Part shown: positions 372 through 4,204 of the stretch, one piece after another
How positions within the stretch are numbered: position 1 is the stretch's first letter
How the letters are laid out: each line of letters opens with the position of its first letter
IMG/VR virus record: IMGVR_UViG_3300042361_000498
DNA length: 64,000 nucleotides
DNA from: a virus
Lineage: Duplodnaviria > Caudoviricetes
Reading direction: 5' to 3' (one strand)
The notes under the pieces: model-generated
Database searches by the model: none
The model's input: the letters and a program-made list of their open reading frames with translations, nothing else
What the model was told of the DNA's origin: nothing
Translations under genes and position numbers: made by a program

Positions 372-1436
372 ATGTCTTGGGAAATATTTAAACAAAATAT
401 TGTAAGAATTTCAAATAGACCAGGTAGTATACCTGATATAGATACTGTGGCTAGGGCTTATGCAGTTGAATACGATGCTGCAATTAAAAGAGGATTTGAT
501 ACTTTAAATAATATAGCAATTCAGCAAGGTGATGTTGCAACAATGGAAAGATTGTTTAAAATTGCTTTACAAAAAGGATTATCATCAACAGGTCCATATG
601 ATTTAGTTGGTGAAATGGGAAAGGGTGTAATTGCGTATTGGAGTGCACCAGGTGGGCCTGCTAGTATAGCTGATAATGCGGATGGTATTGATGCGGTGGA
701 GGCTGAAGCAATTCAAACCGATATTAATAGAGAATACCCAAAAACTCAATTAGAGTATGAAAGACAGTTTCCATCAAAAGAAGCCGCAATGGCAAATAAT
801 AGTAATGTTTCACCAAAAGAAGCATTAGATTCTGTAAACGATTTTAATAATGAAAAATCCCAAAGTAATGCTGATACTAAATTAGTTGGAAGGGGTGATA
901 CTGCATTATTTAATAAATGTGGAAATGGAATATGGCCTGCATTGGGAACTGCTCCAAATTTTGAAATAAGAAGTATAGAAAATGCTGACTCAGATTGTCC
1001 TAGAAAATGGTACAAAACAAATCAAGAATATCTAACAAAAAATTGTACTCAAATAATGTTTCCAACTGCCAAAGGTAGTTCTAAAATATTAGTTCATAAA
1101 AATTTGGCAGCAATTATAAAACCCGCATTAGAAGAAATAAAAGCAAAAGGATTGCAAAGATATATTGAAAATTGCGGAGGTGGGTTGGCTATTAGAAATG
1201 TAACTTGTGGTACTAGATTATCAAATCATAGTTGGGGAACTGCGATTGATATGAATACGGGAATATACCCATATGGTGTAAAATTTAAATCAGATGGAAT
1301 TTATAGTGGTAAGAAAAAACTTAGAGAACTTAATGAATTTGATAAAGGATTCCAACAAGTAGCAGCAATATTTAAATCAAAAGGAATGACATGGTTAAGT
1401 AATAATGACCCAATGCACGTTTCTATATATGAATAA
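372..1436 (+). CDS. Peptidoglycan hydrolase: helical N-terminal segment plus C-terminal M15 (VanY/Ply500-like) Zn peptidase
   Basis: SNHSWGTAIDMN (SxHxxGxAxD) and DPMH Zn-ligand motifs at the C-terminus. Confidence 0.85.
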   Translation: MSWEIFKQNIVRISNRPGSIPDIDTVARAYAVEYDAAIKRGFDTLNNIAIQQGDVATMERLFKIALQKGLSSTGPYDLVGEMGKGVIAYWSAPGGPASIADNADGIDAVEAEAIQTDINREYPKTQLEYERQFPSKEAAMANNSNVSPKEALDSVNDFNNEKSQSNADTKLVGRGDTALFNKCGNGIWPALGTAPNFEIRSIENADSDCPRKWYKTNQEYLTKNCTQIMFPTAKGSSKILVHKNLAAIIKPALEEIKAKGLQRYIENCGGGLAIRNVTCGTRLSNHSWGTAIDMNTGIYPYGVKFKSDGIYSGKKKLRELNEFDKGFQQVAAIFKSKGMTWLSNNDPMHVSIYE

Positions 1437-1446
1437 TTATTAAGAT

Positions 1447-2283
1447 ATGGGAGCTATAATGAGAAACTTTCCAATACCACTTATACCAGCACCAGGCTCA
1501 ACTGCCAATGTTGCTGTAATAAATAATGTGGTTTTAAGTCCGGGAGTTTGGGGACCACCACAACCATCGGTAGGAGCAAGACAGGGAGATACTTTATCCG
1601 AAGAGGAAAAAGCTGGTGCACAAGAAGATTTGGATGTTGCAAAAAAAGATTTGCAAGAATTTCAAAATGACCCAACACCCGAAGGACAGGCTAAAGCACA
1701 AACTGCAAGAGAACAAATAGCATATCAATCGGAAAGATTGGGAAGTGGTGAGAATGCATCTTCATCGGATGTATCAAATGAACCAAAGCAAGAGATTATA
1801 GCAGATTTGCCACCTGATATGGAAATAGGATTAAAAATAGTTCAATATGCTTTAAGAGATTTAGGAGTAACTGAAAATCCACTACCACCGGGAAAACCTG
1901 AAAATTCCGGTCCAAGAGTTTTACAAATGTTAAAAGGTGTTGGATTTAATACACCCGCATATTGGTGTGCTGCTGCGGTATCTGCTTGGTATAAGAGTGC
2001 TGGTGCAAAATCACCCAATAGTGCATCATGTGATGTTTGGATGAGTTGGGCAAAACGAAATGGATTGTTTAGTAGCAAACCTGCAATTGGAGCAGCTATT
2101 TTATATGGTAGTTCGGCAGATGCACATCACATAGGAATTGTTGAGGCAATAAGTGGGGATAGAGTAACTACAATAGAAGGTAATACTTCTGGTGGTGGTT
2201 TTAGTAGAAACGGAGTAGGTGTATTCCGTAAATCAGCAAGAATTGCAAAAGCAGTTGGATTTGTATTACCAATAAAAAAATAA
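1447..2283 (+). CDS. Peptidoglycan hydrolase with C-terminal CHAP amidase/peptidase domain
   Basis: AYWCAAAVSAW (catalytic Cys), AHHIGIVE (His), IEGNT motif. Confidence 0.85.
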   Translation: MGAIMRNFPIPLIPAPGSTANVAVINNVVLSPGVWGPPQPSVGARQGDTLSEEEKAGAQEDLDVAKKDLQEFQNDPTPEGQAKAQTAREQIAYQSERLGSGENASSSDVSNEPKQEIIADLPPDMEIGLKIVQYALRDLGVTENPLPPGKPENSGPRVLQMLKGVGFNTPAYWCAAAVSAWYKSAGAKSPNSASCDVWMSWAKRNGLFSSKPAIGAAILYGSSADAHHIGIVEAISGDRVTTIEGNTSGGGFSRNGVGVFRKSARIAKAVGFVLPIKK

Positions 2284-2287
2284 TAAA

Positions 2288-3220
2288 ATGTCAGCAGTTA
2301 GACCTACGGATAATACTGGAGTAATAGTTGATGAGTTCATTCGTTATGCAACTCAACATTTAACTACTGTAACCGGCGTTATATCAACAACATCTTTATA
2401 TCCACCTTTGGGTACACCCGGACCGGGTATTATAAATTGGACAGGTTATACAGTTCCCCCAGCAGCACCATCAATACCTATTGGTCAAGTTGATACATCT
2501 GCAATAGAAATGACACCTGAACAAGAAGCAATAGCTGAAAGAGCATCACAAAGGGGAGCTGATTTAAATTCTGCAACCGCAGCTGCACTATCTGGTGTGG
2601 AATATACAGGCGGTTCTTCTGGTGGAGGTGGTGGAGGTGGTAGTGATTCTGGCGGTGTAGTATCTTTATCCGCAGATAAATTGCCGGTTGATGGTGTTGA
2701 AAAAATACCTAATTACAAAACAAGTGTAAAAGTTCCACCCGAAATAGTTGTTGCTATGAGAAAATATGGAGTGGGTAGAAGTCCTTTGGAAAGAGCACAC
2801 TTTTTAGCACAATGTGCTCACGAAAGTGGAGGATTTATTTATAGAGAAGAATTGGCAAGTGGAGCTGCATATGAAGGTAGACGTGATTTGGGTAATACAC
2901 AACCTGGCGATGGTGTACGATATAAAGGTAGGGGATATATTCAATTAACGGGTAGAGCAAACTATACAAAATTTGGACCTGTTGCTGGTGGTGATTTTGT
3001 AGGAAATCCAAGAGTAGTTGCACAGCAATATTATGCTGATACCGCTTGTTTATTTTGGAAATCAAATAGTTTAGGTCCAAAATGTGTTAATTCATCGATT
3101 GATACTATTAAAGTTGTAACTAAAAGAATCAATGGTGGTTATAATGGATTGAACGATAGAGTAAGTAGATTTGCAGTTTATTGGAGAGAATTACAAAGAG
3201 ACCCGACACTTTGGGCATAA
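2288..3220 (+). CDS. Peptidoglycan hydrolase with C-terminal glycoside hydrolase family 19 (lysozyme/chitinase-like) domain
   Basis: AHFLAQCAHESGGF, YEGRRDLGNTQPGDGVRYKGRGYIQLTGRANY and TKRINGGYNGLNDR are typical of phage GH19. Confidence 0.9.
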   Translation: MSAVRPTDNTGVIVDEFIRYATQHLTTVTGVISTTSLYPPLGTPGPGIINWTGYTVPPAAPSIPIGQVDTSAIEMTPEQEAIAERASQRGADLNSATAAALSGVEYTGGSSGGGGGGGSDSGGVVSLSADKLPVDGVEKIPNYKTSVKVPPEIVVAMRKYGVGRSPLERAHFLAQCAHESGGFIYREELASGAAYEGRRDLGNTQPGDGVRYKGRGYIQLTGRANYTKFGPVAGGDFVGNPRVVAQQYYADTACLFWKSNSLGPKCVNSSIDTIKVVTKRINGGYNGLNDRVSRFAVYWRELQRDPTLWA

Positions 3221-3275: not shown

Positions 3276-3782
3276 ATGAATACGGATAAATTATTAAAAG
3301 CTATTCAAATTCTTATCAAAGAGGAGTTAAAACAACAACTCCCTGCTTTGATTAAAGAAGGAGTGAAAGCGGAAATGAAAAAGGTTTTAGCGGAAGGAAA
3401 TACTAAACCACAACCTAAAAAAGAAAGTGAAGGATTTTCAATGGCTAAAGCAATATTGGGGAATGATACTATTAAGGAATCGGTTGAAACTAAAGTAGTA
3501 GAAACTAAACAATTTAGTAAAAACCCAATTATTAATCAAATTTTAAATGAAACAAGAGGTGGTATCCCACAAGGTGATGGTGGTTTTAGAACAATGAATT
3601 TTGGACAAGGTGATATGGGGTCTGTTGTAGGTAGAACTGCAGTAGCTGATAAAATGGGATATGGTGATTTAGCTAGAGGACCTCAACCAAGTGGATTAGG
3701 TGTTCAAACTGGGGTGCCTGAATTGGATAAAGCATTGAACAGAGATTATTCAGAATTAGTAAAACGATTTAATAAAAAATAA
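3276..3782 (+). CDS. Hypothetical phage protein
   Basis: 168-aa ORF behind a late-type motif; N-terminus KLLKAIQILIKEE resembles those of the head-associated proteins. Confidence 0.7.
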   Translation: MNTDKLLKAIQILIKEELKQQLPALIKEGVKAEMKKVLAEGNTKPQPKKESEGFSMAKAILGNDTIKESVETKVVETKQFSKNPIINQILNETRGGIPQGDGGFRTMNFGQGDMGSVVGRTAVADKMGYGDLARGPQPSGLGVQTGVPELDKALNRDYSELVKRFNKK

Positions 3783-4204
3783 TGGCAGTATTATTAGGTC
3801 AAAGGATGGTTAAAGATACAATTGCATATAACGATTATGCTATTGGTATTACATTGCCATTACAAATAGGAAATAATGCATTTAATCAATCATTTAAAAC
3901 AATTGACCAAGTAAAAACAAATATTAAAAACCTTTTATTAACAAAAAGAAAAGAAAGAGTAATGCAACCGGAATTGGGTAGTGGCTTACAAGAATTACTT
4001 TTTGATTTTAATGATGACTTTTTAGCTGATGAAATAGAAGAAGTTATTACAAACAGTATGGAAAAGTGGTTGCCATACGTTACTATTGAAGAAATTGATG
4101 TTAGACAGACTGATGAATTTAAGGATACCAATCGTGTTGAAATTTCATTAACATTTAGTATAACAAATAATGTAGGTATGGAGACAGTAACCTTTACAGT
4201 ATAA
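3782..4204 (+). CDS. gp25: Baseplate wedge subunit, T4 gp25/GPW-like
   Basis: NIKNLLLTKRKERVMQPELGSGLQELLFD...WLPYV pattern of the GPW_gp25 family; directly upstream of the baseplate J/gp6-like gene. Confidence 0.85.
   Translation: MAVLLGQRMVKDTIAYNDYAIGITLPLQIGNNAFNQSFKTIDQVKTNIKNLLLTKRKERVMQPELGSGLQELLFDFNDDFLADEIEEVITNSMEKWLPYVTIEEIDVRQTDEFKDTNRVEISLTFSITNNVGMETVTFTV

Follow-up and report, generated by a model that had tools for sequence, protein, structure and literature searches.

Three cell-wall hydrolase genes that follow one another in an uncultured tailed phage raise the question of where their short N-terminal parts come from. The DNA analysed, referred to as the window, is a stretch of 64,000 nucleotides (nt) from IMG/VR record IMGVR_UViG_3300042361_000498 (Duplodnaviria; Caudoviricetes). 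On its plus strand, a trio of head-to-tail open reading frames (ORFs) occupies positions 372-1436 (354 amino acids, aa), 1447-2283 (278 aa), and 2288-3220 (310 aa). The spacing is 10 nt between genes 1 and 2 and 4 nt between genes 2 and 3, and the reading frame differs for all three. All three start with an ATG of their own and end in TAA, and internal stops are absent. An earlier note, made from the letters of the window, had proposed that the N-terminal parts are pieces of one ancestral domain split into three polypeptides, each with a different cell-wall enzyme. Sequence comparison supports this proposal, since contiguous and stand-alone homologues of the domain sit at the syntenic locus in related phages.

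Three different hydrolases behind three N-terminal pieces

The C-terminal parts of the three proteins matched Peptidase_M15_4 (PF13539; residues 280-351 of gene 1), CHAP (PF05257; residues 171-246 of gene 2), and Glyco_hydro_19 (PF00182; residues 180-266 of gene 3), in all cases above the Pfam gathering cut-offs. Catalytic residues are legible in each product: H-x6-D plus a later His in gene 1, the Cys of YWCAAAV and the His of AHHIGIV in gene 2, and the Glu of CAHESGG together with a KGRGYIQLTG motif in gene 3. PHROGs concurred with Pfam, so that the assignment of the enzymes to M15, CHAP, and GH19 in the earlier note was confirmed by both databases and by the catalytic motifs. The N-terminal parts had no Pfam match. 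The note had placed the pieces exactly, at positions 372-644, 1450-1569, and 2294-2473. Piece 2 consists of a Pro-rich extended segment and one long β-strand; piece 3 consists of one helix and a β-hairpin and closes with the motif W-x-G-Y-T-V.

The pieces are collinear with one unbroken domain

With the N-terminal 95 residues encoded by gene 1 as query, a sequence search returned 401 proteins (65-100% identity), in which this N-terminus is joined to M15_4, CHAP, VanY, M15_3, GH19, GH24, or unnamed domains. Among the 120 closest homologues, 113 have piece 2 directly behind piece 1. Thus, protein P0007 contains pieces 1 and 2 followed by CHAP, and P0069 (445 aa) contains contiguous pieces 1, 2, and 3 followed by a linker and GH19. 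When piece 1 was used in an exhaustive HMMER search of 1.84e9 representatives, 152 cluster representatives matched. About 20 of them are stand-alone proteins of 182-198 aa made up of pieces 1, 2, and 3 only and ending at the W-x-G-Y-T-V motif (P0169, P0172, P0177, and P0184, among others), and about 30 consist of the unbroken domain and one C-terminal enzyme. The contiguous homologues that the earlier note had mentioned were thereby found, as were the single ORFs covering all three pieces for which it had advised a BLAST or HMM search.

In seven of the 152 representatives, a foreign segment lies in frame between the pieces of a single chain. The segment is a domain of about 260 aa at the junction of pieces 2 and 3 in P0153, P0162, and P0171, indicating that the junctions between pieces tolerate insertions. 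In these three proteins (P0153 is encoded at L012:4194-6263), the insert belongs to no assigned family, and a further unnamed domain of about 230 aa lies at the C-terminus. The deep-branching proteins P0216, P0254, P0260, and P0232 have a helical, Pro-rich segment of 200-280 aa between pieces 1 and 3 in the same chain, and no enzyme was detected in this segment.

In the coordinates of the unbroken domain, piece 1 is equivalent to residues 1-91, piece 2 to residues 92-131, and piece 3 to residues 134-192. BLAST E-values between the pieces and their homologues range from 1e-5 down to 1e-45, and the collinearity is therefore not due to chance. On the evidence of these alignments, the pieces share a common origin and are collinear with one unbroken domain of about 185 residues, which we refer to as the anchor. 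The aligned sequences place the anchor in uncultured phages in five forms: stand-alone, with a C-terminal enzyme, with an in-frame insertion, as two genes, and as three genes. The family has no Pfam model (no match for 49 members), no PHROG annotation (no match for P0169), and no member among GenBank phage genomes (no match by tblastn of piece 1, P0206, and P0069:1-200 against 50,697 phages).

One complete and ordered set of pieces at every locus

The gene order around the anchor was compared between relatives. Locus L005 encodes, in order, proteins of 126 and 414 aa, a stand-alone anchor of 186 aa, a protein of 183 aa, gp25, and a protein of 677 aa. The corresponding series in L001 is 130, 416, and 170 aa, an unbroken anchor with GH19 (445 aa), 200 aa, gp25, and 678 aa. 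In L002, it is 128, 410, and 76 aa, pieces 1 and 2 with CHAP, piece 3 with GH19, 169 aa, gp25, and 677 aa; the piece-3 gene overlaps the preceding gene by 10 nt. L004, which is 88% identical to the window, has three genes, with M15_4 behind piece 3 in place of GH19. Loci L009 and L010 also have three genes, encoding piece 1 with M15, piece 2 with an unnamed Cys/His domain, and piece 3 with GH19, and share just 39% identity with the window in piece 1. The three-gene layout thus recurs in independent samples (P0002-P0006, L004, L014, and the distant L009/L010). The slot between a probable spike gene and the gp25/gp6 genes is kept in all relatives examined.

To extend this comparison, IMG/VR was scanned with the single sequence of piece 1, which led to 187 relatives, of which 80 loci were taken up. 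Profiles of the three pieces were then searched in 93 loci in total. One complete, ordered set of the three pieces was found in all 93. The set was distributed over two genes in 74 loci, one gene in six, and three genes in five, and two loci had a divergent piece 2; the remaining six were likewise two-gene loci, each scored with one extra weak or spurious match. The two-gene form is therefore the commonest, and the three-gene form is found in the clade of the window and in one distant clade. The gap between split genes has a median of 4 nt and a range of -10 to +15 nt (91 junctions). This tight spacing suggests that translation of the split genes is coupled.

Purifying selection and bare pieces

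Between the window and L004, the ratio of nonsynonymous to synonymous substitution rates (dN/dS) was 0.17 for pieces 1 and 3 and 0.23 for piece 2, compared with 0.11-0.21 for the enzymes; values over the whole of genes 1 and 2 were 0.11-0.37. By this sequence-based measure, the pieces are under purifying selection. Residues that are invariant or nearly so in the unbroken domain are kept in the split pieces, including Y34, G41, W90, P104, N111, G123, and H155 (alignment A1).

Two loci contain pieces without an enzyme. In L014, a gene of 104 aa consists of piece 1 (90% identical) and 13 linker residues; the M15 unit is cleanly missing and the piece-2 gene begins 12 nt downstream. In L051, a gene of 69 aa encodes piece 3 alone. 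These loci are natural deletion experiments. Retention of an enzyme-less fragment as an intact ORF makes sense if the fragment itself is needed to build the anchor.

Predicted fold of the anchor and of the three-piece complex

AlphaFold2 (AF2) modelled P0069:1-200, from a 49-sequence alignment, as one compact α/β unit with a predicted local distance difference test score (pLDDT) of 93.3 and a predicted template modelling (TM) score of 0.88. Helices 3-14, 23-39, 55-71, and 78-90 all come from piece 1, strand 110-121 from piece 2, and helix 141-156 and hairpin 160-183 from piece 3. In the model, the sheet needs both piece 2, which gives one strand, and piece 3, whose hairpin pairs with that strand; the piece 3 helix packs against those of piece 1. 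Confidence is lowest at residues 121-140, the junction of pieces 2 and 3, as expected of an insertion-tolerant loop. The unbroken sequence is thus predicted to form one structural domain rather than three.

The structural check advised in the earlier note was to set the joined chain against a complex of the separate pieces. The joined chain gave a single domain, as described above. For the three pieces of the window, complex prediction gave a score of 0.58 (runs of 0.50, 0.58, and 0.69; best control 0.03), which is classed as 'weak support'. The runs agreed in at least 85% of contacts, with a partner pLDDT of at least 67. Of 80 solved complexes, 58 reached the pass mark of this procedure, as did two of 110 mismatched pairs; at scores of 0.60 or less, only seven of the 80 solved complexes passed, and both passing mismatches were also in this range.

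Comparison of the anchor model with known structures returned nothing at E <= 0.001 in the Protein Data Bank (PDB) with Foldseek, and the highest Z that VIA-align reached over 48,161 chains was 4.9. In BFVD and the ESM Atlas, all matches were unnamed proteins of the anchor family itself. In the AlphaFold Database (AFDB), a weak match was obtained with A0A382PFL9, from a cluster named 'tape measure C-terminal domain' (E 2.8e-3; TM scores of 0.53 and 0.64; 9% identity). We treat kinship of the anchor with this domain as a lead only.

Exchange of enzymes and history of the splits

The M15 cargo behind piece 3 in L004 and that behind piece 1 in the window are 69% identical over both the linker and the M15 domain; the moving unit is therefore the linker plus the enzyme. 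The M15 unit is also present behind piece 2 in many other phages, with up to 84% identity. CHAP was found behind pieces 2 and 3, as was GH19 (behind piece 2 in P0156), and homologues beginning with piece 3 carry GH19, M15_4, VanY, or GH24. With M15, CHAP, and GH19 each occurring at two attachment points or more, these sequence comparisons establish movement of the linker-enzyme unit between attachment points.

Other cargo was observed among the homologues. A frequent domain without a Pfam match, represented by residues ~200-393 of P0010 and by L009:6132-7067 (P0286), contains conserved Cys (GLCPQG) and His (YGHIQVW) motifs and may be another papain-like peptidase. P0023, P0150, P0124, and P0132 (558-653 aa) contain VanY and a second conserved segment that includes the motif VPVFLFSAGC.

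A tree based on piece 1 only (133 rows, 93 columns, unrooted) was used to examine the history of the family. Stand-alone and C-terminal-enzyme forms are scattered over divergent branches, and two-gene forms occupy large, shallow clades. The three-gene forms make up two separate clades, each within a different two-gene clade and with starred support. Forcing the three-gene forms together gave a difference in log-likelihood (lnL) of -75.6 and an approximately unbiased (AU) test p of 0.049, a borderline value for a group that was named after the tree had been seen. Our claim for the three-way split is limited to its presence in two clades or its spread by recombination. The likely order of events is a stand-alone domain that became enzyme-bearing, was split once, and was then split twice, with occasional reversal. 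In P0069, the junction of pieces 2 and 3 (P-M-S-A-V-K-P-T) keeps the Met-Ser of a piece-3 gene start and the protein nests among two-gene forms on the tree, for which reasons it looks like a re-fusion of split genes by deletion.

A proposed split anchor carrying three enzymes

The reading that we favour, with a probability of about 0.65, is that one gene of the baseplate module was broken twice and that its pieces refold into a shared anchor carrying three enzymes near the spike or hub. The ancestral product would be an α/β protein of about 185 aa, of an undescribed family, encoded between the probable spike gene and gp25/gp6 in a large, uncultured, mostly freshwater group of contractile-tail phages. 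In many lineages, the anchor protein would tether a peptidoglycan hydrolase through a low-complexity linker of 80-110 aa. There are three places at which a linker-enzyme unit can be attached, namely behind residue ~91, behind residue ~131, and at the C-terminus; where attachment is internal, the chain usually stops after the enzyme and restarts with a new Met a few nucleotides later. In the window, all three places are filled, by M15_4, CHAP, and GH19, so that closely spaced and probably translationally coupled genes supply the anchor in the form of three polypeptides. The three pieces would refold together non-covalently into the original single domain, and one site near the spike or hub would carry three enzymes cutting different cell-wall bonds during tail penetration. 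Physical re-assembly is backed indirectly by the single-domain AF2 model, the complete sets at 93 of 93 loci, selection on the pieces, the bare pieces, and the weak complex score. From gene order, we infer that the trio proteins are present in the virion; their action at the time of penetration is similarly presumed. By gene order and analogy, the trio would most likely be a lysin module associated with the virion and anchored near the spike or hub.

A wider form of this reading, for which we consider the odds to be even, is that of a tripartite split-protein platform. The fragments would rejoin on the spike or hub and present exchangeable linker-enzyme units, so that three activities are displayed in a 1:1:1 ratio and each attachment point can be re-equipped by recombination. 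The joints between fragments might also release the enzymes after ejection.

Several observations weigh against the split-anchor reading. The loci with bare pieces, each known from a single contig, might reflect recent deletions. For the anchor fold, the searches gave no relative that is solved or annotated, and the family is absent from the 50,697 GenBank phage records, so that location in the virion is read from gene order. The direction from unsplit to split forms is likewise one that we infer, since the 93-column tree is unrooted. The complex prediction, finally, did not go beyond 'weak support', and piece 1, with its four helices, might be able to fold and dock by itself. The latter two points lead to an alternative in which the three pieces are independent docking tags, each with its own site on the baseplate or spike, and no domain is rebuilt. 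A four-helix bundle is plausible as an autonomous tag, and bare piece 1 (L014) and bare piece 3 (L051) do exist as separate small proteins. This alternative is nonetheless unlikely: AF2 pairs the piece 2 strand with the piece 3 hairpin and packs the piece 3 helix on piece 1, a Pro-rich strand of 40 aa would hardly be autonomous, each piece is kept once and in order in 93 of 93 loci, and the split pieces retain the residues that do not vary in the unbroken domain.

The trio could also encode ordinary late endolysins acting from within, with N-terminal pieces that are leftovers or regulatory and have no role in the virion. PHROG matches do go to families labelled endolysin, the virion location of the trio depends on gene order as stated above, and the genome sequence is incomplete (71.8 kb), so that a separate lysis cassette may lie outside it. 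We find this explanation quite improbable, given that the locus is fixed between the probable spike gene and gp25/gp6 in all relatives examined, that an enzyme-free stand-alone form of 186 aa occupies the same slot, that the pieces are under purifying selection, and that no holin or spanin is adjacent to the trio. It is harder still to see the split as decay or artefact, that is, as frameshifted pseudogenes, mis-assembly, or a recoded read-through polyprotein. Its starting points are the metagenomic origin of the sequence and the location of the trio in three different frames. The same layout is found in independent samples (P0002-P0006, L004, L014, and L009/L010), dN/dS is 0.11-0.37 throughout genes 1 and 2, and each gene has an ATG and a TAA of its own and no internal stops, which together make such an origin barely credible. 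Two specific mechanisms were considered and rejected. Read-through or frameshifting into one polyprotein does not fit three frames, TAA ends, and separate ATGs, the frame changes excluding simple read-through. As for an intein and protein trans-splicing, Pfam identified no intein (Hint) domain and just the three hydrolase domains, and the inserted segments consist of linker and enzyme.

Genes surrounding the trio

The trio sits within a baseplate module, downstream of the probable spike gene and upstream of gp25 and a gp6-like gene (Table 1). The gene order is probable spike, variable coiled-coil ORF, anchor gene or genes, an ORF of 168 aa, gp25, and gp6. The presence of gp25/gp6 baseplate genes nearby, as read in the earlier note, holds for both. 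In addition to its Pfam match, the gp6-like gene has DNA similarity to an annotated baseplate wedge gene of Flavobacterium phage immuto.

Table 1. Features of the anchor locus and of the adjoining baseplate genes. Positions are those of the window unless a locus is given.
Feature	Position	Strand	Remarks
Probable central spike, 412 aa	L008:646-1881	-	212-1450 nt upstream of window position 1
Low-complexity coiled-coil ORF, 3' part of 191 aa	3..368	+	Start 207 nt before window
Piece 1 of split anchor domain, 91 aa, four helices	372..644	+	N-terminus of gene 1
Acidic low-complexity linker and Peptidase_M15_4, TAA included	645..1436	+	PF13539 E 9.5e-8; attached behind piece 1
Start codon and piece 2 (40 aa)	1447..1569	+	N-terminus of gene 2; piece from 1450
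Linker and CHAP cysteine peptidase	1570..2283	+	PF05257 E 4.8e-7; phrog_9589 endolysin E 4e-21; behind piece 2
Met-Ser and piece 3 (60 aa)	2288..2473	+	N-terminus of gene 3; piece from 2294
Linker with Gly run and GH19 glycosidase	2474..3220	+	PF00182 E 2e-7; phrog_181 endolysin E 1.8e-40; behind piece 3
Conserved neighbour, 168 aa (161-200 in relatives)	3276..3782	+	Syntenic in L001, L002, L004, L005, L012, L014, L051
gp25-like baseplate wedge protein	3782..4204	+	PF04965 E 1.5e-11; phrog_261 E 2e-22
gp6/Baseplate_J-like wedge protein, 678 aa	4209..6245	+	Weak PF04865 match

The neighbours of 130, 412, 168, and 355 aa had no match in Pfam or PHROG. A protein search with the 412-aa protein returned 1,577 homologues, indicating that this phage group is common in metagenomes. 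Its Atlas features lie near Gp5_OB and Phage_base_V clusters (0.90), the top Foldseek rows are the phiKZ spike, an extracellular contractile injection system (eCIS) spike, and VgrG, and VIA-align gave Z of 7.1 for a P1 baseplate chain, 7.0 for the phiKZ spike, and 6.2 for the phi92 spike. The AF2 model has a pLDDT of only 65. These signals are concordant, each of them being weak, and the 412-aa protein is probably the central spike, with a predicted OB fold of the gp5/gpV/VgrG type followed by β-structure. It terminates in a helical hairpin and has no classic apex. Because the upstream gene is a probable central spike, the likeness to spike-tip adaptors suggested in the earlier note is a reasonable analogy.

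The slot of the coiled-coil ORF varies, with 76 aa in L002, 170 in L001, 191 in the window, and 269-274 in L004 and L014; the ORF is absent from L005, and its matches are limited to weak coiled-coil or tape-measure-like ones. The nearest isolate is Microcystis phage Mel-JY01 (L095, PP395634.1), which encodes at 161423-162454, between a spike-like gene and gp25, a protein of 343 aa with a low-complexity N-terminus of 130 aa and GH19. Comparison of this protein with the anchor alignment by hhalign revealed no similarity; in this phage, the slot is filled without this anchor.

Comparison with known systems

A literature search returned no description of this anchor family or of split tail lysins, and the family is not mentioned in a pelagimyophage paper (PMC7029224). 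Taken singly, tail lysins, swappable cargo, and gene fission have precedents. The new elements are the cutting of one small fold at two places, with each fragment handling a different enzyme, and a full series of intermediates. Several enzymes would be loaded on a tail in a new way, by breaking an anchor domain and not by lengthening a polyprotein or adding structural sites. The family provides a rare natural series within one small fold, comprising stand-alone domain, C-terminal fusion, loop insertion, two- and three-way split, and bare fragments, so that the evolution of both domain insertion and gene fission can be tested directly. If the proposed re-assembly is true, protein engineering could make use of a complementation system of three fragments that arose by natural selection and offers three cargo positions.

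Among known systems, tail-associated lysins such as the T4 gp5 lysozyme domain, SPO1-like tail lysins, and tape-measure lysin domains resemble the trio in that the hydrolase genes belong to the tail or baseplate module and the enzymes are tethered to a structural component; by analogy, both would act locally during penetration. In T4 gp5, a structural protein holds the enzyme in mid-chain, and the parts of this chain stay associated although it is broken. In the window, by contrast, a stop codon and a new start break the chain at the level of the genes and not by proteolysis, the anchor is a small α/β domain and not an OB-fold/β-helix spike or a tape measure, and up to three different enzymes would share one anchor domain. 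The trio proteins are also distinct from a hub lysozyme of the T4 gp5 type, since they end with their enzymes, the anchor model consists of helices and a three-stranded sheet, and Pfam detected neither Gp5_OB nor Gp5_C in them, the spike-like features belonging to the separate 412-aa protein.

Polymorphic toxins and effectors of type VI secretion systems (T6SS) share with the anchor family a conserved N-terminal module with swappable C-terminal cargo and a location near a spike gene, which is probable in the case of the window. The anchor module, with 65-76% identity over hundreds of proteins, is joined to at least six enzyme families, and linker-enzyme units have been swapped even between phages that are 88% identical. 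Unlike these effectors, the cargo consists of phage cell-wall hydrolases, immunity genes are absent, and the delivery module itself is split; the tie to the spike is drawn by analogy.

As in gene fission and in split-protein complementation with bipartite and tripartite reporters, a single fold is cut at loops into collinear fragments, and unbroken, loop-inserted, and split versions of the anchor coexist in nature. Known natural gene fissions mostly part whole domains. The cuts in the window, in contrast, fall inside one domain of about 185 aa, with each fragment serving as the handle of a different enzyme and the fragments presumably associating. Multi-subunit endolysins, such as PlyC and lysins with internal starts, combine a catalytic chain with separate wall-binding subunits and are lysis enzymes. 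They too derive lytic activity from more than one gene product, whereas the gene products of the window carry fragments of a single fold and are encoded in the baseplate module.

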